A DNA stretch of 64,000 nt from Bdellovibrionota bacterium (GTDB lineage Bacteria > Bdellovibrionota_C > UBA2361 > JBIKWN01). Position numbers and translations under genes: made by a program. The notes below the pieces were generated by a model. It did not search any database. It saw nothing but the letters and a program-made list of their open reading frames with translations, and was not told where the DNA came from. The stretch spans positions 37,708 through 101,707 of the forward strand of contig JBIKWN010000004.1 in NCBI GenBank assembly GCA_044356295.1, given 5' to 3'. Below are positions 6,741-37,976 of the stretch, in pieces (positions within the stretch are counted from its first letter, which is position 1; every line of letters begins with the position of its first letter).

Positions 6741-6970
6741 GAAGGAAGCATACTAGGTAATTGTAGATTGTTCATGATTCGTTCAACGCAACAACGTTAA
6801 AAGCTTTCAGTTTCATGAAAGAGCAAAAAATATAAAAAGATGCCACAGGCTTATTTTATTAACCACCTGAAATAACTCAGAAAAATAAAATTTATTAGTC
6901 AAAAAACTGATAAATTTCGAATACTTATCATAATAATAATCATCTAATATGAGACACTGTAAACCTCAGC

Positions 6971-7876
6971 ATGGAAGCCGAAAAACTTTACCAATCACTT
7001 TATACAATTCGTCATTTCGAGACGCGTCTTCTTGAGTTGTTTGGAGAAGGAAAGTTAAACGGGACTACTCATGCTTACATTGGACAAGAAGCAAATGCAG
7101 TTGGAGTTATCACGCATCTCCAAAGCGATGATGTTGTTTGGAGCAATCATCGATGTCATGGACACTACCTTACCTATACGAACGACCTTGAAGGATTAGT
7201 CCACGAGCTTGTTGGTACCTCAAAAGGAACATGTGCTGGTAAAGGTGGCAGTCAACATCTTTGTAAAGGAAATTTTTTTACGAATGGAATTCAAGGAAGC
7301 ATTACTGCAGTAGCAGCAGGGATGGCACTTTCTCAAAAGCTATCAAACTCAAAAGCAATATCGACTGTTTTTATTGGTGATGGAACGCTCGGTGAGGGGC
7401 TTGTTTATGAAGTCATGAATATTGCATCACTTTGGAAACTTCCGATTCTATTTGTACTTGAACATAATCAATATGCTCAGAGCACTCCAGCAACATTGGA
7501 AGTTTCAGGGATACCAAAACTTCGACCTGAAAGTTTTGGTATTAAAACATTTGAAATAGATTCAAATGACATTAATGAAACATATTTATTTGGGCAAGAA
7601 ATAACAAATTTTGTTCGGACCAATCGGCTACCAGCATTTGCAATAATGCACACCTATCGGCTGTGTCCACACAGTAAAGGTGATGATTTTCGCGACATAT
7701 CAGAGATCGAACACTGGAAAACAAAAGATCCAATTGGATTTGCTCAAAAACTTTTAGCGAAAGAAGCGATCAATCAGATAGAAGAATCTGTTCATGAAAG
7801 AATGCACAGTGCTGTTCAAGATGCATTATCTTTATTTGAGCAGCAAAAACTTGCTCGAAAGGAGGCAATGACATGA
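6971..7876 (+). CDS. ThDP-dependent dehydrogenase E1 alpha-like subunit
   Basis: GQEA, SNHRCHGH, GKGGSQH, ThDP motif GDG...EHNQYA, YRLCPHS. Confidence 0.93.
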   Translation: MEAEKLYQSLYTIRHFETRLLELFGEGKLNGTTHAYIGQEANAVGVITHLQSDDVVWSNHRCHGHYLTYTNDLEGLVHELVGTSKGTCAGKGGSQHLCKGNFFTNGIQGSITAVAAGMALSQKLSNSKAISTVFIGDGTLGEGLVYEVMNIASLWKLPILFVLEHNQYAQSTPATLEVSGIPKLRPESFGIKTFEIDSNDINETYLFGQEITNFVRTNRLPAFAIMHTYRLCPHSKGDDFRDISEIEHWKTKDPIGFAQKLLAKEAINQIEESVHERMHSAVQDALSLFEQQKLARKEAMT

Positions 7877-8883
7877 ATAATCAGAACAAAAAAAGATTTG
7901 TCACTGTTCTGAATGAAACGCTCCATACTTTATTTGAAGAGCACGAAAATGTAGTACTTATTGGTGAAGACTTACTTGATCCTTACGGTGGAGCTTTTAA
8001 AGTTTCAAAAGGACTATCGACTGCTTATCCAGAGCGAGTCATTACTTCACCCATCAGTGAAGCCGCAATTGTTGGCATTGGAGCAGGCCTCGCAATAAAA
8101 GGGTTTTTGCCAATAATTGAAATTATGTTTGGTGACTTTACGACACTTGCTTTTGATCAAATAGTGAATGGCATCTCTAAGTTTCGTTCGATGTATAATA
8201 ATCAAATAGAATGTCCTGTGATGATACGAACGCCTATGGGTGGTGGACGTGGATATGGTCCAACGCATAGTCAAAGTTTAGAAAAATTCTTTTTTGGAAT
8301 ACCACATTTCTTAGTTCTTGCTCCTCATACGATTCATGATGTTGAATCATTTTATAAAAATGCACTGTTAGATCCTCGTCCGAAACTAGTTGTAGAAAAC
8401 AAATTACAGTACGCAGAATTTGTTGAATTCGGGAGTGATAAAATTAAAGATTTTTTTGTAAGCTATTCAAATACTCCTTTTCCAACAGCAACACTATCTC
8501 TTGCTCAACAGAGCAAAGTCGATGCAACTATTATCACGTATGGTGGTATGGTTTCAGTTGCGCTGGAGGCAGCAGAAAAATTATATCTTGAAGAAGAGAA
8601 AATTGTTGAAGTTCTCGTGCCGACAATGATATCGCCCTTTCCCCTAAAAGATATCGAAAATTCAGTTCGTAAAAGTGGAAAAGTATTAATTCTGGAAGAG
8701 GGTACGAAAACAAATGGATTTGGAGCTGAAGTCGCTTGTCAGATTCAGGAACACCTTTTTAGCTGCTTAAAAGCTCCTGTAAAGAGAATAGCAAGCCCCG
8801 ATGACTGTATTCCTAGCTCTAAAGCATTAGAAATCCACTTTTTACCTCAGGTAGATCTGGTTTATCGTGAACTCCTCTTATGA
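7873..8883 (+). CDS. ThDP-dependent dehydrogenase E1 beta-like (transketolase-C) subunit
   Basis: GEDLLDPYGGAFKVS, PISEAAIVG, EIMFGDF, GPTHSQ, LEEG; ATGA overlap with E1alpha. Confidence 0.93.
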   Translation: MNNQNKKRFVTVLNETLHTLFEEHENVVLIGEDLLDPYGGAFKVSKGLSTAYPERVITSPISEAAIVGIGAGLAIKGFLPIIEIMFGDFTTLAFDQIVNGISKFRSMYNNQIECPVMIRTPMGGGRGYGPTHSQSLEKFFFGIPHFLVLAPHTIHDVESFYKNALLDPRPKLVVENKLQYAEFVEFGSDKIKDFFVSYSNTPFPTATLSLAQQSKVDATIITYGGMVSVALEAAEKLYLEEEKIVEVLVPTMISPFPLKDIENSVRKSGKVLILEEGTKTNGFGAEVACQIQEHLFSCLKAPVKRIASPDDCIPSSKALEIHFLPQVDLVYRELLL

Positions 8884-9995
8884 AAAAAGTATTTATTCCT
8901 GTTCAAGATGCAAATAGCACTACAGCAATTATTCGAGAGTTGCTCTGTAAAGACGGTGATGTTGTTACAAAAGGGCAAGTGATAGCTCATGTAGAAACAT
9001 CGAAAGCTATCTATGATGTGAACTCCTCTGGAGCTGGTCGAATTATTTATAATACGAAGTTACATGACGAGCATTCATTTTCAAATCCAATTGCTTGCAT
9101 CGCTGAAGAGGGAGAAGATTTTGAAACAGTACGGGCGAATTTTTATTCAGGAAAATCAGAAGAAAAAACTACTGAAGTAAAAGCTACTAAAAAAGCAAAA
9201 CTTCTTGCTGAAACTATAGGCATACATCTTTCTGATATAATAAAAGAGGGGATACTTTCTGAAGAAGATGTAATGCAATTTGCAAAAGATCAAGGAATTG
9301 CTACCCCCAAAGCTCCGATTTCTTTTTTAAAACCAAATGAATTTCCGCCGCGACTTACAAGAGTACTTGTTATAGGAGCGGGCAACGGTCTGGCACAAGT
9401 TGCAGATATTATGAGTCATGTTGCTCATCAGAGAATTGTCGGTTGTGTCGATGATAGTAAGGACCTTCATTCAAATGAGCCTTTTGGAGTACCTCTGATA
9501 GGGACGATTGCTGATATTGAACGTCTCTATAACGAAAAGAAATTTGATGCAGCTGTTATAGCAATTTCATCGAACGTCAATGTGCGCCGTATGTTGTTTG
9601 AAAAAATTAAAAATTTTGGGATCCCATTTGTAAATGTTATCGATCCATCTACCAGAATAAATAAATTTTCCATATTAGGTGAGGGGAATATTATCTGTAG
9701 TTTTGTACATGTCGGAACATATACATCTCTTGGCGATAACAATTTTATAAGCGCGCATTGTAGTATTGATCATCATAATATTTGGGGTTCACACATCACC
9801 CTTGGGCCCGGATGCCATTTTTCAGGTCGAGTAAAAGTGTGTGATTCAGTGAAATTTGCTACTGGAATTTTTGTCCAAAACGGCATCGAGATTGGAGCTG
9901 AATCAACAATTGCATCAGGTGCAGTTATTACAAGCTCTATTCCTGAGAAATCATTGGTGAAGACACAAGTGTCGCATGTGATTGTTCCAAAATGA
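8880..9995 (+). CDS. Lipoyl domain + PSBD-like segment fused to PglD/NeuD-family hexapeptide (LbH) sugar acyltransferase
   Basis: GDVVTKGQVIAHVETSKA (lipoyl-Lys), KATKKAKLLA...GILSEEDV (PSBD-like), VLVIGAGNG...VGCVDD (PglD N-domain), hexapeptide repeats with SIDHH; ATGA overlap with E1beta. Confidence 0.85.
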   Translation: MKKVFIPVQDANSTTAIIRELLCKDGDVVTKGQVIAHVETSKAIYDVNSSGAGRIIYNTKLHDEHSFSNPIACIAEEGEDFETVRANFYSGKSEEKTTEVKATKKAKLLAETIGIHLSDIIKEGILSEEDVMQFAKDQGIATPKAPISFLKPNEFPPRLTRVLVIGAGNGLAQVADIMSHVAHQRIVGCVDDSKDLHSNEPFGVPLIGTIADIERLYNEKKFDAAVIAISSNVNVRRMLFEKIKNFGIPFVNVIDPSTRINKFSILGEGNIICSFVHVGTYTSLGDNNFISAHCSIDHHNIWGSHITLGPGCHFSGRVKVCDSVKFATGIFVQNGIEIGAESTIASGAVITSSIPEKSLVKTQVSHVIVPK

Positions 9996-11610
9996 GCTCG
10001 ATCGACTCAATGCTCCATTCAGACTGAGTATCTAATCCAATCTGTTCAATAGTCACACAAGTTACTGATGATGGCTCGCTAAAATAGAGCTCTACGTTAT
10101 TTTCTTGTTTTAAACTAAAAAGCGAATTATTAATCCGTTCAACAGCACCTCTCCACCATGGTTCTCTGTATAAGAGGATGTCTTTAGTACAAGCTCCATC
10201 TCTTGAAGAACCATTAAAGACTTGAACACCACGTGGAAAATCGCTGATAAAATTCCGAAGCGTGATGGCAATTCCTTGAACACTGAGAGGTTCAACAAGG
10301 TCAAATGATACCCATTCACCTCCATGCTGAGTTCTTGGGACAGTGCTCCAACGGGTTTGTTTTTTTCGTTCTAAAATTATTGGAAGCATTGATTGATTTG
10401 TTGAACCCCAAAGATTTTTGATTTCGTTTTTTGTAAGAATTATTCGATTAGTATCGTTGAGTGGAGGAAGAGGAAGTTTCGATTTAATGATATACAAGGA
10501 CGGTGAATTTAAGAGAGGGCTTATCTGAAGTCTTTTGTCGCTTACTGATGTATGAAAAAAAGTATCAATAGGAGCAGTCAGATATAAAAAAACTGGCAAC
10601 GCAAAGGAAAGAGCAGCAATCCGAGTATTAGATATACTGATGATCAGAGAAGTATAAATAATTAATCCAATACAAATCATTTGATTTATAGAATACATTT
10701 TTGCAAACGGAATGATCCGCGATATTCCAGCAAGAGGAGATGCGGACCGAATAGAGGGCGAAAACAGATCGCTTTCCATAAATAATAAAAAGGTAAAAAC
10801 GAGAAAGCCAAAAGACTTTTTTAGTTGTGATGTTTGAAAACTTGTAATCCATGAAAGAAATATTGCAAAGAAAACAAAGTAGGTAACGCGCCCAGCAATC
10901 CAGATTTCGTTCAGGGAAGGGCGCTCTGGGGATGGACCAAATAATGGATCGATACCGAGCCCAGTTCCGGTACTTGGGACAAATCGGCTCAATGATGGCA
11001 GATGTAACTGTGGAGGGAAGTGGGTAAGAGCCAGTGCAATGAAAAAGCAAAATATAATAAAAAGAAATAATGAATTACCGAATGGATCTTTTCTTTGTTC
11101 GTTACGTAAAAGCTTATCTATAATGAGGGCAATAATAATAGTTACTGGAAAGAAAACCGGAAGGATGAGAGCAGAGATTAAGAGCAGGATATTTCTTTTT
11201 TGTAATGAAAGAGCACATACATTAATTAAAATTGAAATTGCGGTAAGTAGTGAAAAAAGAGAAACACCATCAAAAATAAAAGTACTAAAGATCAAAAAGA
11301 AAATTGCAACGAAACTTTTCTGATCGAGCGTAAAATTTTTACAAAGGAAAAAAAGCATCCCCAATAGTGCTGAGATCAGCGCTATACAGTTTAGAGGATA
11401 AAGATTTTGAAAGAATAAAGGCAGTCGTAGGGCATAGTAAGCATTTGTTTCCAGTCCTGTCACAATTGTAAGTGTATTTGTCGCAGAAGGGCGAATCGTC
11501 CCAAAAAAACTATCACCTGCAGGAATATAGAAGCTTAGAAAAAGTCCAAGGCAGCCAGAAAAAATGCTAAAAAAAACTAATCCGATACTCCATGAATTTG
11601 ATTTTACCAT
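9937..11610 (-). CDS. Polytopic membrane protein with C-terminal discoidin/F5-8-like domain
   Basis: Many hydrophobic segments; C-terminal RWST...QHGGEWVSFDL...DFPRG...WSIESIEL resembles F5/8 type C carbohydrate-binding modules. Confidence 0.55.
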   Translation of the reverse strand: MVKSNSWSIGLVFFSIFSGCLGLFLSFYIPAGDSFFGTIRPSATNTLTIVTGLETNAYYALRLPLFFQNLYPLNCIALISALLGMLFFLCKNFTLDQKSFVAIFFLIFSTFIFDGVSLFSLLTAISILINVCALSLQKRNILLLISALILPVFFPVTIIIALIIDKLLRNEQRKDPFGNSLFLFIIFCFFIALALTHFPPQLHLPSLSRFVPSTGTGLGIDPLFGPSPERPSLNEIWIAGRVTYFVFFAIFLSWITSFQTSQLKKSFGFLVFTFLLFMESDLFSPSIRSASPLAGISRIIPFAKMYSINQMICIGLIIYTSLIISISNTRIAALSFALPVFLYLTAPIDTFFHTSVSDKRLQISPLLNSPSLYIIKSKLPLPPLNDTNRIILTKNEIKNLWGSTNQSMLPIILERKKQTRWSTVPRTQHGGEWVSFDLVEPLSVQGIAITLRNFISDFPRGVQVFNGSSRDGACTKDILLYREPWWRGAVERINNSLFSLKQENNVELYFSEPSSVTCVTIEQIGLDTQSEWSIESIELILEQSHATLVSSPMISQE

Positions 11611-13826
11611 AACCTTGAAAACCCTGATTTTGCGTTAATAGTAATAGGTGTTTGTGTCGGACAATTACTGAGCTGTATAAAAGAAAGATTGCCTTCAAGT
11701 ATTTTAGAAGTCATTTGACAAGAGCTGTTTGTTTTTAAAAACGGGAAATATTGAAAAGAAAGCAGTGCATTTGGTTCATCTAACGTGAGTGTGACTGAAT
11801 TAGAAGTCTGAGAGATAATATTTCCCTTGCCTTCAAGAATATAATTACTTAGATGTTTTCGTTTAAATACGTTAAATACGCCGTAGATTCCTAACAAAGT
11901 ATACTGTTCAGGATGTGCCCTGAAGTAAGTGCGCCATTTTTTCTCATGAGCAATAACAAGAGTAGCGTTTACTCTTGAGAAGTAATCTTCAAATCCAATA
12001 TTTCCACGGCGCAGATATTCTGCTGGCATAAGCTCTGTATAACGCCAAACATTATGGAATAAAGTAGAAGCAACTAAGGGAGTTTTTGCTTCTTGCATGA
12101 GCGGAGCAAGGTGCCCTTGATTGAGCTCATGAAGGACAAACCCAGCAAAAACTGCTCTTCCTCCTTGTGCATTATTTTGAATGACTTTAGAAAGTTCATA
12201 ATAAACGGAATCAGCAAAGAAATATTTTTCGGGGCTTCTGTTGTAGATAATGCCACTGACTGAACCAATGCCTGAAAGTATTAAAGCTAAAGGAATACTG
12301 ACAAGTACTCTACCAAGTTTCTTATGCCTTAAAATCTCTGTTGCATCAGAAAGAAGTCTTGCAGCAGGAATACACAATACAAATCCAAGGATGATAATCA
12401 TCCTGTCTAGCTCTAACTGAGGAAGTTTAGGGGCAACAATGAGTCCAAGTGTTAATAACCAGAATACATGAATAGCAGTAAGCCATTCTTTTCTAAATGC
12501 AAAAAAGACTGCAAAAAGTCCAAATATGAGAACAGTTATATTCATTGGATTAAAGAGTTCTCTGGAGTTCTTTAACACTATTTGAGGTGTAATCTTTTTT
12601 GCTGATCCCTTTACGAATGCATTTGGTTGCTTTTTAGTTATCACTGGAGGGGCAATCGTTTCGTCTTGTGACTCAGAAGCTACCTCTGCAGTGCCATGTG
12701 ATTTTTCATGAAGCGCCATAAAAGTGTTTACTTTCGAAACAGAAAGAAACAAAACAATCCATGGGACATTAATGATGAGAAGGGCTGCAATGAATTTTTG
12801 AACCTCTTTTCTCTTAATGAGCGACGGAAATTTAAATAATCCAAAAATAATAGCAGGAAGAAAAATGAGTCCGGTTAAAGACCAGCAAAGCATTAACGAG
12901 AAACTAATCGTTGCAAAAATCCACTGACGACGAGTCAGTACTTCTTCTCGAAGAATTTTTATAGCAAAAACAATATTAAGAGGAATAAAAAGAGTCGATG
13001 TTACAAACCCCATCGATCCGTACTTAAACGCCCAACGATACCAAAAAAGACTTGTTGCAAATGAAAGCAGTGATGCAATTGCAGGAATTGGATCTCGGTA
13101 ACGCTCTATACGACAAGCGTAAAATATCAGTGCAGGACCAATAATAAAAAGTGTCCCTGAAATAATAATGTTATAGATACTTCGAACATCAAAAAGGTAA
13201 ATCAAAGGAGCCCAAAGGGTAAAAAGATTTAAAACTCCAGTAGCAAAAAAATCTCTCGCATCAAGTCCCATATTCCAAAACGGATTATAAAATGGAATAA
13301 ATGGAAAATTCTCTTTCAATAAACTTAATCGATACACAACAACAGAGTGATCATCTGAATAAAGAAAATTACCTTTCGAGACCGATAGAAAAGTAAATAT
13401 TAAACAAACACTACTAATGACAAGAGATGTAGAGAAAAGAAATTTTTCTTTTCTATGCCAAAGGGCGGTAATAACCAGTGCAGTAAAAAAGAAAACTTCA
13501 CCCCGTATCTCTGGAGCTTTAGGAAAGCTATATGTTCTTGCTGTCCAATCAGAGAAAAAGCAGATTAGAAAACTTATAACAACACCGAAGTGTGATATAT
13601 TTGGAGTCCACTGCGATCTATTTATCCCTTTTGCATGGTGCTGATAAAGTGACAGTCCCAAAAATAATAAGCCGATCATTGTGACCCAAGAACCAGCAGG
13701 AACAAGGACGGATCCTTCGGAGCTCCAGAGACGAAGGGTTCCACCTAAAATCCCAAAAAAAAGCAGGAATATCCCCACCGTAAAGAGGGTTTCTAATGTT
13801 GATTTATTTACACAGAATTTAAACAT
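11604..13826 (-). CDS. Polytopic membrane protein, probable GT-C/YfhO-like glycosyltransferase-related
   Basis: More than 10 TM segments, acidic pair YSDDH followed by PFYNPFWNMG, C-terminal soluble domain with YFPF; coupled to the downstream gene. Confidence 0.5.
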   Translation of the reverse strand: MFKFCVNKSTLETLFTVGIFLLFFGILGGTLRLWSSEGSVLVPAGSWVTMIGLLFLGLSLYQHHAKGINRSQWTPNISHFGVVISFLICFFSDWTARTYSFPKAPEIRGEVFFFTALVITALWHRKEKFLFSTSLVISSVCLIFTFLSVSKGNFLYSDDHSVVVYRLSLLKENFPFIPFYNPFWNMGLDARDFFATGVLNLFTLWAPLIYLFDVRSIYNIIISGTLFIIGPALIFYACRIERYRDPIPAIASLLSFATSLFWYRWAFKYGSMGFVTSTLFIPLNIVFAIKILREEVLTRRQWIFATISFSLMLCWSLTGLIFLPAIIFGLFKFPSLIKRKEVQKFIAALLIINVPWIVLFLSVSKVNTFMALHEKSHGTAEVASESQDETIAPPVITKKQPNAFVKGSAKKITPQIVLKNSRELFNPMNITVLIFGLFAVFFAFRKEWLTAIHVFWLLTLGLIVAPKLPQLELDRMIIILGFVLCIPAARLLSDATEILRHKKLGRVLVSIPLALILSGIGSVSGIIYNRSPEKYFFADSVYYELSKVIQNNAQGGRAVFAGFVLHELNQGHLAPLMQEAKTPLVASTLFHNVWRYTELMPAEYLRRGNIGFEDYFSRVNATLVIAHEKKWRTYFRAHPEQYTLLGIYGVFNVFKRKHLSNYILEGKGNIISQTSNSVTLTLDEPNALLSFQYFPFLKTNSSCQMTSKILEGNLSFIQLSNCPTQTPITINAKSGFSRLW

Positions 13827-28495: not shown

Positions 28496-30661
28496 ATGAC
28501 CTGTGAATCCAGTAAAACGTGTGGTTGTACAAAACAACCTTGGCTCCTATTTTTATTTATTGTAGTTGGGATAGCGCTCAGATTTTGGGCACTCGATCTT
28601 CGACCACTCCATCATGATGAATCGATTCATGTTATGTTTGGTCGATATTTTTTTGATTGGCCAAATGACAATTATTATAAATATAACCCAGAATATCATG
28701 GACCACTTCTCTATAATTTGTTGAGGTTTGTGTATGAAACCTTTGGTGACTCAGAATACTCTGCACGAGGATTAATCGCAGTTTTCGGTTCTTTGTTTTT
28801 ATTCCTTCCTTACTTACTTCGAAAATATTTAGAACCTGGAATTGTACTTGCATTGACCGCTGCAATTTCACTTTCACCAACTATGATTTACTGGTCTCGT
28901 TTTGTTCGTGAAGATATTTTTGTTCTTTCTGGAATGTTGATGCTTCTTTGGGGATGTCTTGGTGCTCGTGCCGAGCTGAAAACTTTTTGGGTCCTTCTTG
29001 GTGCAGTGTTTCAATATACATCGAAAGAGAACTCATATGTAACCATTGCAATGTTTTGGGGTTTTTTTCTTGCTGATTGGCTTTGGCGCAAGATAATAGA
29101 AAAAAAATCAGAGTCCTTTCCCTTGTTATTCTTGGCACCATTTCCATTTATAGCAGGTAGTCTTTTACATCTTGGATCCTTACACTTCCCAAGATACGCA
29201 ATGGATGCAGGCGCGTTTCTAAGTATGTTGTTAATGCTAGCAGATTGCTTTCGTGCTACGTGGCGATCAGGGGAAGATGCATCTTTTGTTTCTCGAATGT
29301 ATGCACATGTATACACGTATAAGAGACATTTTCTTACTTCATTATTGTTTGCTGTAACTCTCTTTTGTTTCTTATTTAGTGCTGGTTTCCGATATCCAGA
29401 TGGGATTTTGGACGGTCTCTATTATAAAGGGATTACATATTGGGTTGAGAAGCATTCAATTGAAAGAATTAAAGGACCGTTCTTATTTCATTTCTATCAA
29501 CTTGCTTGGTATGAACTGTTTTTTATTGTCGCAATTTTTATTCATGCAGTGCATTTTTACCAGCGTCAACAGAGAGCCATACTCATCGCAATCCTATCCA
29601 CTATAGGAATTTCATTACTATGTGCCATCATTCAGGCTAATGTCTCTGGACCTTTTCAAACTGAGCCTACTTTTTTCCTTTGGAAAGCATTGAAATTAAA
29701 AGATTCATTTGATGTATTCGGAGCACCAATACTCTTTGTTCATGCAATCTTGATTCCTCTTGGACATCATCAGAAAAAAGAATGGATCCTTTCACTTTTT
29801 GGATACTGGTACGCCGCAACATTTTTTACCTATGCATATTTAGGCGAAAAAGTTCCATGGTTATCTTCCTATCCTTTAATTATGGGTTGGATCTATCTTG
29901 CCGCTTATACGGACTATGCACGTAATTATAGACAAGAATTAAAGACGATTTCCGAGAAAGCTCCTGTTGGAAAATATCTTGGGCTTATTGGTTGGATACT
30001 TCTCGTCGTTACGCTTATTTCAATAATCGAAGAGTATTTCAGATTCGAGACCATTTATGTTGCTATTCCATTTACCATATCGAAACTTCTAGAACCTTTT
30101 CAGATTTCATTAATTATTGGCCTTGGTTTAGTTGCTATCGGTTGGTTTGATAAACACTACCGGATCGTTAATGAACCAGTCATGGTAGGGCGATTTGTAT
30201 TGTTACTTTTTTCTATTTTTACTCTACGTATAGCTTTAATTACTAATTTTGAATTTAAATATCATGAATTAGGATATATCAGTCAGGTGCACACGACCCA
30301 AGAAGCCAAAAATGTTGCTGTAAAAATCCGAGATCAAATTTTAGTGAATACAGCACCGAAGGTTCCTTCGATATTTGTCGACGGCGATGCTACATGGCCG
30401 ATGACTTGGTATTTTAGAGACCTGCCAACGTATAAATTTTCTGCGACTCCTGAAGAAAAGAAAAATTTCACCTATATATTTCAAGATGAAAAAGCAGATG
30501 TTCCAGAAGGGTATGAAAAATCTGAATTGAAACTGAGAGGATGGTGGGTACCTGACTTTAGGCAAATGACGATTCGAAGATTCTTTACCATGGCACTGAA
30601 TCAAAGAACCTGGGGTGGAAATGGGTATTCAAATATTTCTTACTTAAGAAAGAAAGACTGA
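28496..30661 (+). CDS. TIGR03663/Agl23-like GT-C (PMT/GT39-like) membrane protein
   Basis: LRPLHHDESIH, YNPEYHGPLLY, SPTMIYWSRFVREDIF, SKEN, EKVPWL, WPMTWYFR, LRGWW. Confidence 0.8.
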   Translation: MTCESSKTCGCTKQPWLLFLFIVVGIALRFWALDLRPLHHDESIHVMFGRYFFDWPNDNYYKYNPEYHGPLLYNLLRFVYETFGDSEYSARGLIAVFGSLFLFLPYLLRKYLEPGIVLALTAAISLSPTMIYWSRFVREDIFVLSGMLMLLWGCLGARAELKTFWVLLGAVFQYTSKENSYVTIAMFWGFFLADWLWRKIIEKKSESFPLLFLAPFPFIAGSLLHLGSLHFPRYAMDAGAFLSMLLMLADCFRATWRSGEDASFVSRMYAHVYTYKRHFLTSLLFAVTLFCFLFSAGFRYPDGILDGLYYKGITYWVEKHSIERIKGPFLFHFYQLAWYELFFIVAIFIHAVHFYQRQQRAILIAILSTIGISLLCAIIQANVSGPFQTEPTFFLWKALKLKDSFDVFGAPILFVHAILIPLGHHQKKEWILSLFGYWYAATFFTYAYLGEKVPWLSSYPLIMGWIYLAAYTDYARNYRQELKTISEKAPVGKYLGLIGWILLVVTLISIIEEYFRFETIYVAIPFTISKLLEPFQISLIIGLGLVAIGWFDKHYRIVNEPVMVGRFVLLLFSIFTLRIALITNFEFKYHELGYISQVHTTQEAKNVAVKIRDQILVNTAPKVPSIFVDGDATWPMTWYFRDLPTYKFSATPEEKKNFTYIFQDEKADVPEGYEKSELKLRGWWVPDFRQMTIRRFFTMALNQRTWGGNGYSNISYLRKKD

Positions 30662-30756: not shown

Positions 30757-33723
30757 ATGTTGTTTACCCCTACCTCCCTAGAAGTAAAGGCAAGTACTAA
30801 AGATGGTTCAGTAAAAGACTATCATTGGTTTAGCTCCGCAATTGAAAAATTATTAGATGGAATACAACAGCTGAGTCGCCCAGACAAAGTGGATCGTCCA
30901 GTGGATTCTCGTCCCCAAACTGCAAACGAACTATTTTCTCAACTCACGGGCTTAATCAGTGACCATCAAAAAGAGATTTCAGAATCAGTATCACTAGAAC
31001 TTTTAGATGTTTTTAGAGCATGTACTCCGTTTCTACATCATCAAGATCTGGATAGTAGAGTTGTTATAGCAGATCGTTTTCTTGCAGAAAGTACACTTCG
31101 AGAATTTCATGAAACTATTGCAAACCTGCAACAATCAATACTTTCAATTGAACCTAACCGAATTGAAGAATTCGCAGATATCTGTATTCGTATCAATCAT
31201 CTTTTTAATATTATTGGTGAAGTAGAAAGGCTTAATCGAACACAGGGTGCTACTTTTTTTGATGACTTCTATCATTCATTCTTAGAAAAAGGATTTCAAC
31301 TACAACAAATTGATGCTCTAGAAATTATCTGGACTGGTACAGCTCATCCAAATAGGTTTGTGACACTTTCCTTAGAGAAAAGTATTGGTGAGTTGGTAGA
31401 TACTTTTGTCGGTGCAAAAGAACTTCCTCATAATAGGATTGAAGAGCTTCTTTGTACGATCCTTAAAGGACAGCTCATCCCAGATACAGCTCCTCGGCGA
31501 GTTGATGAAGCCTCGTATATCAGTCGAACGTTTGCAGAATCAGCCGTCGAGGGATTAAAAAAATTATTCAGACAAGATCTTGCTGCACGAAGAAATGTTA
31601 TGGGAATTGATGCGCCTCCACCCTCATACCGTGTAGAGCTCCATCTTTGGCCAACGTTCGATTGGGATGGTCAACGATCTCCAAATTCAGAAGAAACGTT
31701 AGATAGTATTAAACGTAATCGACAACTTGCATGTAATATTTTAGGGCATGAGCTATCAAGTTTTATTGCTCGTGCTCCCCAACATATTTTAGTTAGTACA
31801 GAACAGGGGCAACACTCTCTTGAGTCACTGCTTGCGCGGTATTTAAATCGTATTCGTGCAATTGAAAGAAACGAGAGTCATGACGATCCTATGACGTATG
31901 ATCGATTACTGAGCGGACTTGATGCAACAATAGTAGCTCTTCAGAATCATGAAGATAATAAACATTACCAATCTTTTATTGATGATTTAATGGAGTTTCG
32001 CTTCATTGCATCCAGTATCGGGCTTCACCTTTGCTCAGGTGAGCATCGACAGAATTCTGACACAAATGAAAAAGTGTTATCCCAGGTTCAGAACTTTTTC
32101 GGTTGCAGCGGATATGAAACTAAATCTGAAACAGAAAAACTTAAAATACTTTCAACGTTGCTTTCTGACCCCGAGTTGTTAGAAGAAGCAGGTAAGAAGA
32201 TCCAAGAGTCAATGAAGACGCTGCCTCAGGATGCCAAGGATCATTTTTCAGTACTCAACGTACTAAAAATGGAGCTTATTAAAAATCCACATACATGTGA
32301 TAGAAGTATTATCTCTCTTACAACAGAGAGCTCTGATATTTTAGAAGCTGAGCTACTTTTAAGGCTTGCTGGAATCAATTCTGGTAACCCGAATGCCCCA
32401 AAAAAAGGAGATGTTCGACTCGAAATTGTCCCATTATTTGAGCGCCCAGAGGATAAAGTAAGATCTGCTGCTATTTTTGATAATGCAATAAATCACTCAC
32501 AATCATTACTTTCTTTGGTCAAGAGTTTTAAAAGATTATCTGCAATGTGTGGATACTCTGATGGACAAATGAGAGGTGGACCAGGGGATCGTGAATTAAG
32601 TCGAGAGATGGAAGAGCAGTTATTTAATCTTGCAACCGATCGTGGTCTTAAACTTCGTATCCAACACGGAATTGGACCAGGTGTAGGAAGGGGGGGTGGT
32701 CTAAACGGTGATCAATCAATGCTCACTCCTGAAGCGGTTCAGTCAAAGTATATTCATTTTACGATTCAAGGTACGGCGATTGGCAAATTGCTCCGTGTGG
32801 CTGTTGCAGTATTTAGACAAGGTGCTACTGCGCTAAAAAACTATGCTGAAGGTCTTGCTCGATTCTCAAGTGTGCAAATTGCCGATAAACAATTTTATGA
32901 AGATAGTAAAAAAATCAGAAAAGATGCCTATGAGCAGGCAAGAAATCTTTATTCTGATTTCACTGGAAGAGGAAAAATAACCACTATTAATAATACAGAT
33001 GTTCCAGATGAAGATATTTTCTTTGCTTCACTCAATCTTATTTTTCCAGTATCTGATCTTGATGGATTAAAACAGGTATCGAGACCATTATTTCGCTTTG
33101 AGCAGAAGGGCGATCAAAGTTTTTTTAATGGACTTCAGAATGAACCGGAAATATGGGCTCCTTATGAAAGTTTTAGAGCCGTACCGAACAGTCAAATTTC
33201 GGATGGATCACGCCTTTCTTTCTTAAGTCTCTATAGTTGGGGACATATCATGGATCAAATTCGCGAACAGAAAGGAGATGAATTCCTTAAAGAGTTGTAT
33301 GTAAAAGACAGAGCATTTCAAGCGGATGTAAATGGTGCCTTGTTAGCATTGCAAGTTGCGCATATTCCGTTTTCTTTGGCTCTTTACCGGGCACAGTATG
33401 AATCTAAAAAAGGGGTGCCTCTGGTTGATCGATTACTGACTTCTTTTGATTTAATAGAGAAAGATTACCTCAGTTTATTAGATGCAATTGATGTACTTGA
33501 ACCAGTCATTATTCCCCGAGTAAAAAGCACTCTTACTGAAATAAGAAAAATGCGTGGTTTAAAAGATCCAACAGCTTTTGTGTTTCAAGTTATACGATCT
33601 TCTGTCACTGCTCGTCGGCACCAGGCGTATCTTGAAGGAGATAAAACTGCAATTGATCGTTACTCGCAGCTTGGAAAATATATTACATTAGTTATTGGTA
33701 CTTCACTCGATACTGGAAGTTAG
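30757..33723 (+). CDS. Highly divergent phosphoenolpyruvate carboxylase-like protein
   Basis: Colinear PEPC motifs TAHP, HRQNS, IISLT..SDILE, VPLFE, GYSD, QHG..GVGRGGG, TIQG, SRP, FRAVP, C-terminal DTGS. ATG at 30757 preferred over GTG at 30742. Confidence 0.8.
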   Translation: MLFTPTSLEVKASTKDGSVKDYHWFSSAIEKLLDGIQQLSRPDKVDRPVDSRPQTANELFSQLTGLISDHQKEISESVSLELLDVFRACTPFLHHQDLDSRVVIADRFLAESTLREFHETIANLQQSILSIEPNRIEEFADICIRINHLFNIIGEVERLNRTQGATFFDDFYHSFLEKGFQLQQIDALEIIWTGTAHPNRFVTLSLEKSIGELVDTFVGAKELPHNRIEELLCTILKGQLIPDTAPRRVDEASYISRTFAESAVEGLKKLFRQDLAARRNVMGIDAPPPSYRVELHLWPTFDWDGQRSPNSEETLDSIKRNRQLACNILGHELSSFIARAPQHILVSTEQGQHSLESLLARYLNRIRAIERNESHDDPMTYDRLLSGLDATIVALQNHEDNKHYQSFIDDLMEFRFIASSIGLHLCSGEHRQNSDTNEKVLSQVQNFFGCSGYETKSETEKLKILSTLLSDPELLEEAGKKIQESMKTLPQDAKDHFSVLNVLKMELIKNPHTCDRSIISLTTESSDILEAELLLRLAGINSGNPNAPKKGDVRLEIVPLFERPEDKVRSAAIFDNAINHSQSLLSLVKSFKRLSAMCGYSDGQMRGGPGDRELSREMEEQLFNLATDRGLKLRIQHGIGPGVGRGGGLNGDQSMLTPEAVQSKYIHFTIQGTAIGKLLRVAVAVFRQGATALKNYAEGLARFSSVQIADKQFYEDSKKIRKDAYEQARNLYSDFTGRGKITTINNTDVPDEDIFFASLNLIFPVSDLDGLKQVSRPLFRFEQKGDQSFFNGLQNEPEIWAPYESFRAVPNSQISDGSRLSFLSLYSWGHIMDQIREQKGDEFLKELYVKDRAFQADVNGALLALQVAHIPFSLALYRAQYESKKGVPLVDRLLTSFDLIEKDYLSLLDAIDVLEPVIIPRVKSTLTEIRKMRGLKDPTAFVFQVIRSSVTARRHQAYLEGDKTAIDRYSQLGKYITLVIGTSLDTGS

Positions 33724-35802
33724 AACTGTATACTTACCTTTTGTTGCAACGAGCGTTAAACAATTAAAATTATTTACATCAACTGCTCCAAAACGCTCTT
33801 GTTCAAGTGGGCCAATGACAAGGTATCGAATCTTCTCTTTATTCATTATTTCTTTAGATAATTCACAATTTTTTGAAGTATACATTTGAGTTAAGACCTC
33901 TTCTCGGCGTTTCGACTCATCATATTTTCTAGTTAAAAGATCGACGTGATTTTTCCATCCGATATAACATCTCTTTCCAGAAAGAGTACACATATGAGAA
34001 GTAAGTGAGTAAGGATTTCCAGGAGCTTCTGCAGTAATACCATCTGGTTTAATAAAGAATGTTTTTATGACTTCTCCAGCTCCCTCAAATTGTTTATCAA
34101 GAGAACTTAATCCCTGTATGCGAGGCAATACTGTGGTTGAATCAATTCTTCGCTCGTTGACGGTGTGAAAGAAGAATGGGAGGGTACAGAAAGCTAATGA
34201 CAAAAACGCTATAGGTGCTAATACCTTCGAGAGGTCTGTATCAGTAATAAGTTTTTTAAATGCATCCCGACAAATAACAATTGCAAAAATACTAAGAAAT
34301 CCCCAATTTGCAGAGTATGCTTTAAATATCGTATTCATCCTTTCGTTTTCTCCGCCGTATGGATCATCGAGAAAGAAAAGTTCTGGTAAAAGTAATAAAG
34401 CAAGGGAAGTAAGTGATAATGCACCAAAAAGAATTGTCGAAATCTCTTTCCTATTATCCTGACTTAAGAGGAATTGAGCATGTATAACAAGAAGCAGAAT
34501 GATCAATGGCAAGGCAGTACTTGAAAGTAAGCAAAATCCAAATCCAAGTACCACGATAAGACTTTGTTGCCAATTTTTTTGCAGAGCACAAAGAGCAAAG
34601 ATAATTGGAATTAATTGAAACCCAAAGTGTGAGAAAAGTTCTTTTATGGTTGTAAGAGGAATTAATTCGCTGACTCTTCTAAACGGATCACCCCCAGGGG
34701 AGATATGTTTTGAAAGAAGATAAAGAGTGATGACGCAGCCTAAGAGTAGAACAAGAATACTGGCAGTAATTTCTGAAACTTTTGTTGCAAGTAAATCTTT
34801 GTAGAAAGAAGAGATGTTTTTTAAATTATTTTCAGATGATAGTACCAAAAATAGAAGGGCACTAAATCCTATCAGAAGTAATAGAACAGGCACTTCCCAC
34901 GCATTTGCATTATATACCCATAGTGGACTAGCTATAAGAAGCATCAGAAAGAGGAACGCAAACGATGATTTTTTTCGCGCGATAAAAAGTTGATATATCC
35001 ATGTTATAAAGACAAGCAGAAGCGGTAAATTTAAATAGTGCGGGTGGAGGTCTCCGAGTAAGAATGACCAAACAGGGAATTCATTAATTGCACCTTTGAT
35101 GACTCGAGAAGGACCCCACCATGATTGACCTGTCTGATCTACTGCATAGAGTAAGCCAGCGATATTTGATCCGAATGCAATAAGAACACTATAACCAATC
35201 GCTAAATAACTTCGTAATCCACCAATCAATTGTAATACTCTTGAAAGTACAGCGATGTATAAACCAAACGTAAGGGCTTGGAGCCCATGGTAGAGTTCAT
35301 ATACTTCAAGCCCTGTGAGTTGATGAAGAACTGCGCCGAGTCGATACCAGAAAAGATAATAGTTTAAGTTTTCTCCTGGAAGCCACGGTTCAGTTGGATT
35401 AATAGGATATTTCACTACTTCTGACAGGAGGGCAAAGTCTCTGATACGCTCCCCCATTGCCACAAAATCAGGCCATAAAAGGCAAAGTTGAAAAATAATA
35501 CAGTAAGAAACTATCCAAAGAATATTTGCTTGTTGTTCTTTAAGTGTTGATAAGCTCCACACGTTTTTAAATGACCAGGTAGTACCCTCAGATTTATCTT
35601 CATTGCTTAATAGATAACAAAGCGAGAGATTTAAAATCAGTAATCCAAAGCAGAGAAAAAATCCTACCGGTATGAATTGTCCAAAGAGTGATAATTCAAT
35701 TGGTATGAATAAAAGACATGCCGTCGAAATTTCGAAGCTTTTGCCTCGAAATGGGATTGTTGCTAAGGAAAGAAATAATAGAAGTAATAAGAGGGAAATC
35801 AT
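33703..35802 (-). CDS. DUF2298 (Chlor_Arch_YYY/TIGR03662-like) GT-C membrane protein
   Basis: GERIRDF, PWLPGENLNYYLFW, INEFPVWSFLLGDLHPH, ERMNTIFK, GW..H, GPLE. Confidence 0.85.
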   Translation of the reverse strand: MISLLLLLLFLSLATIPFRGKSFEISTACLLFIPIELSLFGQFIPVGFFLCFGLLILNLSLCYLLSNEDKSEGTTWSFKNVWSLSTLKEQQANILWIVSYCIIFQLCLLWPDFVAMGERIRDFALLSEVVKYPINPTEPWLPGENLNYYLFWYRLGAVLHQLTGLEVYELYHGLQALTFGLYIAVLSRVLQLIGGLRSYLAIGYSVLIAFGSNIAGLLYAVDQTGQSWWGPSRVIKGAINEFPVWSFLLGDLHPHYLNLPLLLVFITWIYQLFIARKKSSFAFLFLMLLIASPLWVYNANAWEVPVLLLLIGFSALLFLVLSSENNLKNISSFYKDLLATKVSEITASILVLLLGCVITLYLLSKHISPGGDPFRRVSELIPLTTIKELFSHFGFQLIPIIFALCALQKNWQQSLIVVLGFGFCLLSSTALPLIILLLVIHAQFLLSQDNRKEISTILFGALSLTSLALLLLPELFFLDDPYGGENERMNTIFKAYSANWGFLSIFAIVICRDAFKKLITDTDLSKVLAPIAFLSLAFCTLPFFFHTVNERRIDSTTVLPRIQGLSSLDKQFEGAGEVIKTFFIKPDGITAEAPGNPYSLTSHMCTLSGKRCYIGWKNHVDLLTRKYDESKRREEVLTQMYTSKNCELSKEIMNKEKIRYLVIGPLEQERFGAVDVNNFNCLTLVATKGKYTVLTSSIE

Positions 35803-35810
35803 CCCCCAAT

Positions 35811-37976
35811 TTATAAACTTTTTGCGTACCGATGTGTATACAAAGAAATTGAATCGGAGGCTCCATCGATGTTATAAATTCGTTTAAAGTACGCTGGATT
35901 GTTTTTAAATTTTTCTTCAATTCTATCGCCATACAGCTCACGCTCTCTTTTACCAATAACGATAATTGAGACATTATAGCGGTTCAGTGACCTCATTGTT
36001 TGGGTAATATCGCCATCTTGATAGATGGTTCGAATATCTTTCTTCCGCTGTTCAGCATCACGAGTTCCACGTTGCTGAACGTGATACTCCCATCCAAGAA
36101 CCACAGGAAGCCCGGTATGCATGGCAAATCGAGTATATTCTTGGTAAGAGGGGCCGAAACCCTCAACCATTGTTGGAGTACCTTTTATGTTCTTATTGAG
36201 CCATTCAAATGCATTTTGCTCAGTACGATTGAACGTTTTTAGGTAGAAAGAGCCATCAAATGTTGGTCGTCCAGGACTATTAATTCTATTAAAACTACAC
36301 ATGATTCCTATCAGTAGAAACGTAGCTGCTATTGCAGGCGCAAGAATCAACGATACAGCGATCCTAGACCAGGCTGACCGGATGATCATATGACTAACTA
36401 AAATAAGGGTACCCAGAGCAAAAATACCCCAAATCACGTTATAAACCTTAAACAAAGTATTCATTCTATCCATGAAATAGAAACACTCAGCTAACGATAA
36501 AAGTATTGATGAAATTAGTAGAAGGATTCCACTGACTTTTACACGGGCAGTATTGATAAAAGAAGAAAAAATAATTGATGAGGCGGTGATTGAGATAAGG
36601 CTTGCAAAACAAAGTGGTCCAATTGGCATTTCATATGATTGACGGGCACGAGCAGCGATGAGACCAATGATAAAGGGAAGGAGGGCTGCACCAATTCCAA
36701 CAATGATTTTCCAATATGAAATGACTCGTTGTCGGTAGCGATCTCTTGAACTCCAAAGAATAACGACAGACAGTAAAATGAGAAGCAGGAAATGACCATA
36801 AATGCGAAAGATCTCAAGAAATGTATTGAATTCTTCAGGATACACATATCCCCATCCAATTTCTGTTTTTGTTTTTACACTAAGATGAAATGGTAAAGAG
36901 AAAATAATACTAAGGAATAATGTGGAGATGCCAAGAATGGATAAATTTTTCCAATGTAAAGGGAAAACTGTCAGCAAAAATACAAAGCTACAACCGACAA
37001 CAATGCCAACGGTTATATAATCCCAGCTGTTTGTAGCAACAAGCATCCCCCAACTCAGAGCCATAAAACTACAGGTTTTAATCTGTTCGTTGAAGTCAGT
37101 GAGTTGATTTTCAAAAAATGAAGACAGTGTCCTTGTAAGGAGCAAAACTGTTAAAGCAACAATTGGCAGTGCAATGAGATGTGCATGAAGATCACCAAAT
37201 AAAAAACTCCAGAGAGGATATTCATTAATACCAGGAGTATGAAGCGTTCTGCTTGTTGCCCAATAGAGGTCAAATCCAATCGGTTTAAAGCCAGTAAAAA
37301 GTACCCACCAGGTATCGTAAGTGGCAAGAAAACAAATCAATATTGAAAAAAAACTAGATAGTCTTTGTGAGCAAAAGTTTCTAAGAATTAAATAGAATGT
37401 TGTAGCAAACTGCGCTGCAACAATAGCAAGAGAGAAGCTATATCCGATTGTGGGACTTAATCCAGATAGCTTATGAAGCAGACCAAACTGGAATACTCCG
37501 AAATAGTAATATCCCAAGCCATTACCACTAGCCCATGGGTCCGTAGGAGGGAGCGACTGTAATCTTGTAAAATAGTTTAGGAAAGTAAAATCCATCGGTT
37601 TTTCACCCCAATAGATTTCAGGGTGAAATGTACTTTGAAGCCACGTAAACAAGAGAATACCAACATAGAAAAGCTCAATAGTAATCATCTCACTTTTATC
37701 TGGAAGAACAGACTCAAACGAGTCTCGCTTTTGGAAATAGAGATAGGTGCAAAGTAATAAACCTACAAAACTCAAAGATGCAATCAGGAAAGTATCTTCT
37801 TTTGTAATCAAACCTACGATCCAAACAAAGTAGCTAAAAAGAGTAAAACTAAAAACTTTAGAAACTCCATACGCTGTTCTTCGACAAGAAATCAAAGATA
37901 AGAAAAAAGGATACAAGAGGAACTGAATCGTTACGCTAATCGATAGCCAGATAAAAATACTGATTATGGAAGCCAT
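35811..37976 (-). CDS. DUF2298 (Chlor_Arch_YYY/TIGR03662-like) GT-C membrane protein
   Basis: GEKPMDF, PPTDPWASG..LGYYYFG, INEYPLWSFLFGDLHAH, NSWD, RMNTLFK, LGWEYHVQQRG. Confidence 0.9.
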   Translation of the reverse strand: MASIISIFIWLSISVTIQFLLYPFFLSLISCRRTAYGVSKVFSFTLFSYFVWIVGLITKEDTFLIASLSFVGLLLCTYLYFQKRDSFESVLPDKSEMITIELFYVGILLFTWLQSTFHPEIYWGEKPMDFTFLNYFTRLQSLPPTDPWASGNGLGYYYFGVFQFGLLHKLSGLSPTIGYSFSLAIVAAQFATTFYLILRNFCSQRLSSFFSILICFLATYDTWWVLFTGFKPIGFDLYWATSRTLHTPGINEYPLWSFLFGDLHAHLIALPIVALTVLLLTRTLSSFFENQLTDFNEQIKTCSFMALSWGMLVATNSWDYITVGIVVGCSFVFLLTVFPLHWKNLSILGISTLFLSIIFSLPFHLSVKTKTEIGWGYVYPEEFNTFLEIFRIYGHFLLLILLSVVILWSSRDRYRQRVISYWKIIVGIGAALLPFIIGLIAARARQSYEMPIGPLCFASLISITASSIIFSSFINTARVKVSGILLLISSILLSLAECFYFMDRMNTLFKVYNVIWGIFALGTLILVSHMIIRSAWSRIAVSLILAPAIAATFLLIGIMCSFNRINSPGRPTFDGSFYLKTFNRTEQNAFEWLNKNIKGTPTMVEGFGPSYQEYTRFAMHTGLPVVLGWEYHVQQRGTRDAEQRKKDIRTIYQDGDITQTMRSLNRYNVSIIVIGKRERELYGDRIEEKFKNNPAYFKRIYNIDGASDSISLYTHRYAKSL

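Follow-up and report, generated by a model that had tools for sequence, protein, structure and literature searches.

A handful of central metabolic complexes and a few pathways for natural products are known to use protein-bound lipoate. The complexes of the pyruvate dehydrogenase (PDH) and branched-chain 2-oxoacid dehydrogenase (BCKDH) type provide the nearest comparison for a three-gene unit at positions 6971 to 9995 of a 64,000-nucleotide (nt) stretch of Bdellovibrionota DNA, here called the window. Like these complexes, the unit has a dehydrogenase component (E1) of alpha and beta subunits with the thiamine diphosphate (ThDP) motif and catalytic residues, a predicted N-terminal lipoyl lysine in a beta-turn, a linker weakly resembling the peripheral subunit-binding domain (PSBD), a presumably trimeric acyltransferase end, and a lipoamide dehydrogenase (E3) encoded in trans. 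Unlike the E2 acyltransferases of such complexes, however, the third protein of the unit has no core of the chloramphenicol acetyltransferase (CAT) fold; a left-handed beta-helix and a nucleotide-sugar-binding domain take its place. The E1 of the unit also differs from PDH E1, in that it scores below the equivalog cut-offs and belongs to a clade of its own.

The second half of this third protein, a fusion, resembles the sugar acetyltransferases PerB, PglD, PglB, and VioB (TIGR03570). It shares with them a two-domain fold (template modeling [TM] score of 0.83 to 0.91 by target), a histidine at the same position (His298; His141 in PerB), and a DegT gene near most of its relatives. Those enzymes are stand-alone proteins of ~200 amino acids (aa) that use acetyl-coenzyme A (acetyl-CoA), whereas the window fusion adds ~155 residues of lipoyl domain and linker as well as a dedicated E1. 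LpxA and LpxD are left-handed beta-helix acyltransferases that use acyl-acyl carrier protein (acyl-ACP), and both were among the weaker PDB matches of the family profile. They show that the fold can take an acyl group from a protein-tethered thioester, but their arm is a phosphopantetheine on a separate ACP, with chains from fatty-acid synthesis, and not a lipoyl-lysine on the same chain.

Dedicated E1-like ThDP subunits acting with a lipoyl domain have been described for quinocarcin (QncN/QncL/QncM) and scleric acid (SclQ1-4), where a glycolyl unit is passed to an ACP (PMC6335953). Both systems resemble the window unit in having a dedicated E1 and a lipoyl domain that divert, or in our case would divert, an acyl unit from central metabolism into a specialized product. 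They differ in keeping an E2-type acyltransferase domain and an ACP, where the window has a beta-helix sugar acyltransferase; this comparison is one of descriptions. Full-text searches, with most subscription journals outside their coverage, returned no paper on the architecture of the window fusion. Two literature leads were dropped. PDH-like genes in the lipopolysaccharide locus of Legionella pneumophila were considered, but a term search of PMC3766260 found no mention of such genes, and "lipoyl" in a flagellin paper (PMC4875605) means lipidation and is irrelevant. The unit appears to be a variant of the 2-oxoacid-dehydrogenase-type module, with a nonhomologous acyltransferase end and probably a new class of acceptor, which is widespread and of which no studied member was found.

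Domain structure of the fusion protein

The unit consists of three plus-strand open reading frames (ORFs) in the order E1 alpha (6971-7876), E1 beta (7873-8883), and fusion protein (8880-9995). An initial annotation of this DNA had described the genes as translationally coupled, and the ORFs bear this out, with ATGA start/stop overlaps at both junctions (7873-7876 and 8880-8883). An AGGAGG sequence at 7860-7865 lies 8 nt ahead of the E1 beta start.

The fusion protein is 371 aa long, and its domains were assigned from Pfam and NCBIfam searches, profile matches, and an AlphaFold2 model. A lipoyl domain (residues 1-80; 8880..9119) matched Biotin_lipoyl over residues 16-56 (1.6e-6) and has Lys42 (codon 9003-9005) in an ETSKA turn. 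It is followed by a PSBD-like two-helix segment, ATKKAKLLA...EEDV (residues 100-137; 9177..9290), and by a PglD_N-type Rossmann-like domain (residues 161-243; 9360..9608; PF17836, 5.4e-7), the nucleotide-binding half in PerB/PglD-type enzymes. The C-terminal part is a left-handed beta-helix acyltransferase domain (9639..9962; Hexapep, 1.2e-7) with His298 in the motif SIDHH (codon 9771-9773). No match to 2-oxoacid_dh (PF00198, the CAT-fold E2 core) was obtained in Pfam at an E value of ≤0.1. The combination of Biotin_lipoyl, PglD_N, and Hexapep without 2-oxoacid_dh is the one that had been expected for 8880..9995.

Comparison with relatives gave a consistent picture. Residues 162-361 of the fusion matched the NeuD/PglB/VioB model TIGR03570 (1.3e-38), at a bit score of 132.6, which is under the cut-off of 160.8. 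When a profile of 28 relatives was searched against solved structures, positions 162-360 matched the perosamine N-acetyltransferase PerB (4ea7; 5e-41), followed by the acetyltransferase domain of Neisseria PglB, VioB, and PglD, and positions 10-143, covering the lipoyl domain and linker, aligned with the E2 chain 7b9k (1.4e-21). His298 was aligned to PerB His141, and the H141N mutant entry 4eaa has N in that column. In Pfam, Biotin_lipoyl was matched in all 28 family members and PglD_N in 24, while E3_binding was matched in 8, the window protein not among them. An alignment of 70 sequences contained 13 invariant residues, namely, Glu39, Lys42, Gly53, Ala106, Asp191, Arg236, Asn252, Gly267, Gly269, Asn270, His298, Pro310, and Gly347.

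The fusion was modeled with AlphaFold2 from the 70 sequences (mean pLDDT, 93.6; pTM, 0.63). In the model, the turn that joins strands 34-39 and 44-48 contains Lys42, the linker forms helices at 104-113 and 128-137, and the regular beta-helix strands span residues 250-360. The C-terminal half superposed on PerB in Foldseek with a TM score of 0.88 by target and a root mean square deviation of 1.4 Å over 198 columns. Together with the Pfam results and the alignment of His298, this superposition upholds the proposal that the CAT-fold core is missing and that a PglD_N domain and a left-handed beta-helix with a histidine at the catalytic position stand in its place. A complex prediction for three helix domains and a lipoyl domain gave no answer (score of 0.00) and counts neither way.

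Judged by its sequence and its partner, the N-terminal domain is a carrier of lipoyl and not of biotin, because it has the ETSKA motif, lacks the MKM motif of biotin carriers, and has E1 as its partner. The alternative of a biotin carrier was rejected on the same grounds, with E-[TS]-x-K as the invariant motif of the family. The lipoyl domain recognized in the initial annotation is confirmed by both the Biotin_lipoyl match and the invariance of Lys42.

Distribution of the family and its dedicated E1

A word-indexed protein search with the fusion as the query returned 75 proteins, 69 of which covered at least 95% of it, including one at 95% identity from other sources. When 1.84 billion representatives (50% identity) were searched exhaustively with a profile, 2,864 matches were obtained at an E value of ≤1e-30, probably with ordinary PglD-like proteins among them. 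The best 150 of these 2,864 matches were all at ≤1e-82, and 138 of the 150 were full length, starting in the first 10 profile positions. In a scan of one genome per species, 71 loci were found in many phyla, and 56 of them contained the full-length fusion by tblastn. The phyla include Pseudomonadota, Bacteroidota, Planctomycetota, Verrucomicrobiota, Acidobacteriota, Chloroflexota, Actinomycetota, Thermodesulfobacteriota, and Vulcanimicrobiota/UBP9. Among the carriers are Actinoplanes, Micromonospora, Dactylosporangium, and Acanthopleuribacter pedis, and the ideas developed below are directly testable since these bacteria are culturable and harmless. An assembly chimera can be rejected, given the 56 independent full-length loci and the 95% identical protein from other sources; the fusion is real and conserved, as the full-length matches among the best representatives also indicate.

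Closer to the window, the distribution was sparse. Among 40 relatives of its genome, a full-length copy was found only in G025, a genome of the same order (32% identity), and two genomes of the same genus (62% and 86% complete) gave no copy with the window fusion as the query. The closest relatives, P0005 to P0007, were 54 to 60% identical. A metagenome scan with the single fusion protein gave no match; with a close alignment, it yielded a single full-length locus (L084) together with two partial matches, both weak. The patchy distribution, together with trees that do not follow the taxonomy, suggests horizontal spread of the module. Longer fused forms were sought among proteins of 651 to 2,000 aa and none was seen, which is weak evidence. 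In three loci from long-read metagenome bins (L069, L071, and L065), E1 and fusion are broken into several frames, which may be sequencing indels or decaying copies. One 865-aa protein (P0108) has four stretches that match the family profile (1e-113; best stretch, profile positions 160-362) and may consist of the PglD-like half repeated in tandem, with no lipoyl domain.

The fusion gene is closely linked to E1. E1 alpha was adjacent in 53 of the 56 full-length loci and E1 beta in 54 (tblastn). The order was E1 alpha-E1 beta-fusion in 49 loci and fusion-E1 alpha-E1 beta in 4, and the gap between the E1 beta and fusion matches had a median of ~58 nt, mostly 15 to 120 nt. Three loci were incomplete, and two of these (L009 and L024) end at contig ends.

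In the window, E1 alpha (6971..7876, plus strand) is a ThDP-binding subunit of 301 aa (PF00676 [E1_dh], 1.5e-45), and E1 beta (7873..8883, plus strand), whose start overlaps the E1 alpha stop, has 336 aa (Transket_pyr, 2e-29; Transketolase_C, 1.8e-25; Pfam). Both fall under the NCBIfam cut-offs for PDH equivalogs, with 226.6 versus 393.85 bits for E1 alpha (TIGR03182) and 202.7 versus 321 bits for E1 beta (NF006667). The housekeeping PDH E1 alpha of the same genome, on contig C12, scored 417.9 bits with TIGR03182, which is over the cut-off. Window E1 alpha was 33% identical to this protein and 46 to 55% identical to fusion-adjacent E1 alphas in other phyla. Among solved structures, the nearest E1 was of the PDH type (human E1 alpha, 6.5e-32), with branched-chain types at 1e-17 to 1e-22.

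A maximum likelihood tree of E1 alpha was built from 62 rows, after five of 67 tblastn matches with in-frame stops and one duplicate locus were left out; it was a quick search and has several long branches. All 50 fusion-linked E1 alphas lay on one side of a branch with SH-aLRT (approximate likelihood ratio test) support of 100, apart from the PDH E1 alphas of the window's own genome, of G001, G002, and G025, and from other paralogues. The E1 alpha tree and the helix-domain tree both disagree with the taxonomy. The E1 pair thus appears to be a dedicated clade and not housekeeping PDH, as the initial annotation had left to be decided by a tree. Within the clade, E1 alpha keeps the ThDP/Mg motif GDG136-138 with N166, as well as H234-S235, and E63 and H132 of E1 beta are invariant in 57 fusion-linked rows; we take these residues to have the catalytic roles known from PDH, including reductive acylation of lipoate. 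Six positions with invariant hydrophobic residues in four PDH sequences are polar in the clade (F32T, L33T, Y60H, M95Q, W105N, and M170Q).

Another use of such an E1 would be carboligation, with hydroxyethyl-ThDP as the source of a two-carbon branch on a keto sugar and with no role for the lipoyl arm as the acyl carrier. A role of this kind has reportedly been proposed for AviB1/AviB2, although no AviB1 paper was among the matches listed. A sugar cluster on contig C82 of the window's genome contains an odd E1 pair without a lipoyl protein beside it, which shows that a sugar locus can have an E1 pair and no lipoyl partner for it. However, the E1 of the present family is nearly always in an operon with a protein whose lipoyl lysine is invariant, and the window and C82 E1 alphas are 32% identical and did not group in the tree. 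We consider carboligation by the window E1 highly improbable.

Amino-sugar neighborhoods and a proposed acyl transfer

The neighbors of the module were counted after ORFs of the 71 loci had been clustered, with the module itself and antisense shadows set aside. The commonest neighbor was a DegT/DnrJ/EryC1 sugar aminotransferase, which 36 of the 56 full-length loci had within 10 kb, often directly adjoining the module. An NAD-dependent epimerase/dehydratase was found in 21 of the 56 and a GFO_IDH_MocA dehydrogenase in 16, so that 45 loci had one or more of these three sugar markers. No ACP was among the annotated conserved neighbor clusters.

Recurrent layouts were observed. In L002, L005, L010, and L084, the order is AsnB, a polyprenyl-phosphate sugar transferase, a GFO dehydrogenase, E1 alpha, E1 beta, fusion, an epimerase, and a FemAB-like GNAT, and the locus continues with an NTP-transferase, a GHMP kinase, and SIS. 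In L017, L018, L026, and the G025 locus (L087), a radical SAM/SPASM gene lies immediately upstream of E1 alpha, at positions ~6.7 to 8.1 kb of each locus, and DegT, RmlD-like, TylF-like and other methyltransferase, cytidylyltransferase, and split transketolase genes occur variously within ~7 kb. In Opitutaceae and Herpetosiphonaceae, DegT is 4 to 1,627 nt downstream of the fusion. In Micromonosporaceae, it is 1.6 to 6.3 kb upstream on the opposite strand, about half of the cases being at ~2 kb, just past the E1 genes. These neighborhoods in other genomes support a tie between the module family and nucleotide amino sugars.

The observed domain architecture, the conservation of catalytic residues, the tight and coherent linkage of E1 and fusion, and the amino-sugar neighborhoods in most other genomes can be combined in one proposal, namely, that the lipoyl arm is acylated by E1 and unloaded by the helix domain onto a nucleotide amino sugar. 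We lean slightly toward this course of events. With ThDP, E1 alpha/beta would decarboxylate a small 2-oxoacid and reductively acylate lipoyl-Lys42, while the PSBD-like linker would keep E1, and probably also the E3 of the cell, close. The arm, with its acyl thioester, would then swing into the active site of the PerB/PglD-type beta-helix in the same protein, which is presumably a trimer. Acting as the general base at this site, His298 would deprotonate the amine of the PglD_N-bound nucleotide amino sugar, and the acyl group would be transferred. The reduced arm would be reoxidized by a lipoamide dehydrogenase encoded elsewhere (contig C6), and the acceptor in the window's genome would come from an unlinked locus. 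In this scheme, lipoylation, direct CoA-free transfer, the acyl group, and the acceptor are the parts that we infer.

As the nearest E1 is of the PDH type, acetyl from pyruvate is the default guess for the acyl group. A more polar substrate, for example, hydroxypyruvate giving glycolyl, is possible. A nonacetyl group is kept in view because a dedicated machine for readily available acetyl seems wasteful and because of the polar changes in E1 alpha, which would fit a polar acyl such as glycolyl better than acetyl. In its strictest form, the proposal would be one of CoA-independent glycan tailoring, with the arm, which E1 would load by using a keto acid or a ketose phosphate, donating straight to the nucleotide amino sugar inside the beta-helix trimer, which would also replace E2 as the assembly core. 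The general proposal has a precedent in QncN/L/M and SclQ1-4, where E1-like enzymes and a lipoyl domain feed a non-CoA acceptor (PMC6335953). We regard the strictest form as tentative and rather doubtful, mainly because relatives without a lipoyl domain indicate that the catalytic domain needs no arm.

These relatives were found in ten loci (L025, L027, L028, L031, L033 to L037, and L043) of Vulcanimicrobiota/UBP9 and of gut and rumen bins. They are proteins of ~220 to 260 aa that match only residues ~150 to 370 of the fusion, at 40 to 45% identity, and carry the same HH motif. Their neighbors are SurE, histidine kinase, WecG/TagA, BacA, a FabA-like gene, glutamate racemase, and other envelope or housekeeping genes. 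The helix-domain tree places them basally in the clade of the fused forms (SH-aLRT, 98), away from the ordinary PglD-like proteins that relatives of the window's genome carry. Eight high-conservation columns divide fused from short forms (G170, N270, G285, N288, S291, T328, I330, and P334).

Several results weigh against transfer from an E1-loaded arm to an amino sugar. The lipoyl-less relatives have neither E1 nor DegT nearby, and their helix domain presumably acts without a lipoyl arm, with acyl-CoA. Because such close relatives exist without E1, the helix domain of the fusion is probably still able to use acyl-CoA. One locus, L001, is a true exception to the linkage, as the 5 kb of sequence upstream of its fusion contains no E1. 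The fetched flanks of 11 full-length loci (of 56) had no sugar marker of the three kinds. In the window itself, annotation of the flanks showed no sugar-nucleotide gene beside the module, and the genome carries its two DegT genes on other contigs, C82 and C69. The link to nucleotide sugars put forward in the initial annotation thus stands for the loci elsewhere and does not extend to the position of the window module. The PSBD-like segment is the weakest part of the fusion. Although the family profile aligns with the E2 chain over the linker, the segment of the window protein alone gave a weak match to the PSBD entry 1w4i (E value of 0.013), with an interhelix loop 3 residues shorter.

The same observations could mean that the helix domain is an ordinary acyl-CoA sugar N-acetyltransferase, with the lipoyl domain and PSBD-like segment as a tether or regulator, for instance by docking onto E1 or E3, or as a relic, and with E1 serving the housekeeping E2. 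The existence of close relatives that lack both lipoyl domain and E1 fits this, as does the finding that only eight high-conservation columns separate the two forms. However, neither Lys42 nor Glu39 varies among 70 sequences from many phyla, E1 coevolves as a separate clade in which the lipoyl-directed catalytic residues are kept, and the gene order is tightly conserved, with genes overlapping or closely spaced. Such a role for the helix domain is improbable in our view. If the proposed transfer is true, it would be a new job for lipoate, the first in surface-sugar biosynthesis, and a new source of acyl groups for surface glycans. It would also provide a natural case of an E2 core replaced by an unrelated fold.

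The window copy in its own genome

The window copy is atypical in being placed among housekeeping genes. Upstream of the module are an enoyl-CoA hydratase (minus strand), a hotdog thioesterase, and an SbmA/ABCD-type ATP-binding cassette (ABC) transporter, and a further 20 kb upstream is also housekeeping. The CoA-related genes among them suit another explanation, in which the beta-helix is a nonhomologous stand-in for the E2 core that passes the acyl group from the arm to CoA, the module being a small 2-oxoacid dehydrogenase that makes acyl-CoA for a sugar pathway or some other one. The lipoyl domain, PSBD-like linker, and presumably trimeric acyltransferase copy the layout of E2, and the solved relatives PerB, PglD, and PglB bind CoA. 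However, the upstream genes are not conserved neighbors: in tblastn, the hydratase, thioesterase, and ABC transporter were neighbors in 0, 0, and 1 of the 71 loci, respectively, with DegT being the commonest neighbor instead. In addition, PglD_N is retained in most family members examined, and its residues D191 and R236 are invariant. Production of acyl-CoA by the module is consequently a rather unlikely reading.

Downstream of the module are two minus-strand genes for polytopic membrane proteins, one of 557 aa with 10 hydrophobic segments (9937..11610) and one of 740 aa with 13 (11604..13826). The 557-aa gene is convergent with the fusion gene, their 3' ends overlapping by 59 nt (9937-9995), and the 740-aa gene overlaps its start by 7 nt (11604-11610). 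Neither protein had a Pfam or NCBIfam match. In the ESM Atlas, the 557-aa protein gave leads (score of 0.90) to clusters with PMT_2 in 20 to 39% of members, and the 740-aa protein scored 0.97 to 0.99 with unnamed clusters, some with PTPS_related (32%) or YfhO (11%). These three families are GT-C-type glycosyltransferases. Thus, both proteins may be GT-C-type glycosyltransferases, which is a lead, and their link to the module is uncertain.

These neighbors bear on the acceptor. In this genome, the same chemistry could serve a polyprenyl-linked sugar handled by the two membrane proteins, a hydroxyl, as in NeuD-like O-acylation, or a nonsugar amine. The lack of sugar-nucleotide genes near the window module and the two adjoining membrane proteins with their GT-C-like leads are compatible with this, and the name of TIGR03570, under whose cut-off the fusion scores, spans O-acetyltransferases too. 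On the other hand, the closest solved folds are all nucleoside diphosphate-amino-sugar N-acetyltransferases, the membrane-protein assignments are Atlas leads only, and in G025, of the same order, the module adjoins DegT. A different acceptor is unlikely, but we would not call it far-fetched.

As had been stated for the window, no E3 gene is present; a lipoamide dehydrogenase model matched contigs C6, C93, and C45 and not the window's contig, C119. The genome encodes in trans a lipoamide dehydrogenase on C6 (554 bits), LipA, and one BPL_LplA_LipB member, and its three ordinary E2s are located elsewhere. Between the ABC transporter gene and E1 alpha is a 230-nt AT-rich intergenic leader (6741..6970, plus strand), which is likely the promoter region of the three-gene unit. 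It contains a single promoter-like site (6907-6934; 9/12 match); the number of such sites was not above that in shuffles, and neither promoters nor terminators rose above chance level in the scans.

The second DegT gene of the genome, at C69:15146-16267 (L135:9147-10268, minus strand), adjoins genes for a Glyco_trans_1_2 protein and a 422-aa protein. Because no acyltransferase was found in the 20 kb annotated around it, this locus could, as a speculation, be the source of the amino sugar for the window module.

The sugar cluster at C82:56000-75999 (L098) contains an LpxD-like hexapeptide protein, AsnB, a GFO dehydrogenase, DegT, dehydratases/epimerases, SIS, and an HldE-like kinase/cytidylyltransferase. 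After these come the second non-housekeeping E1 alpha/beta pair (TIGR03182, 295.6 versus 393.85 bits), a C-methyltransferase, DmpF/DmpG-like acetaldehyde dehydrogenase and aldolase, and a short-chain dehydrogenase/reductase. The cluster may be a branched-sugar pathway that uses its E1 as a carboligase. Other large ORFs of the window are one of 721 aa without a Pfam match (28496-30661, plus strand) and three of 699, 721, and 603 aa on the minus strand within 33703-39775.

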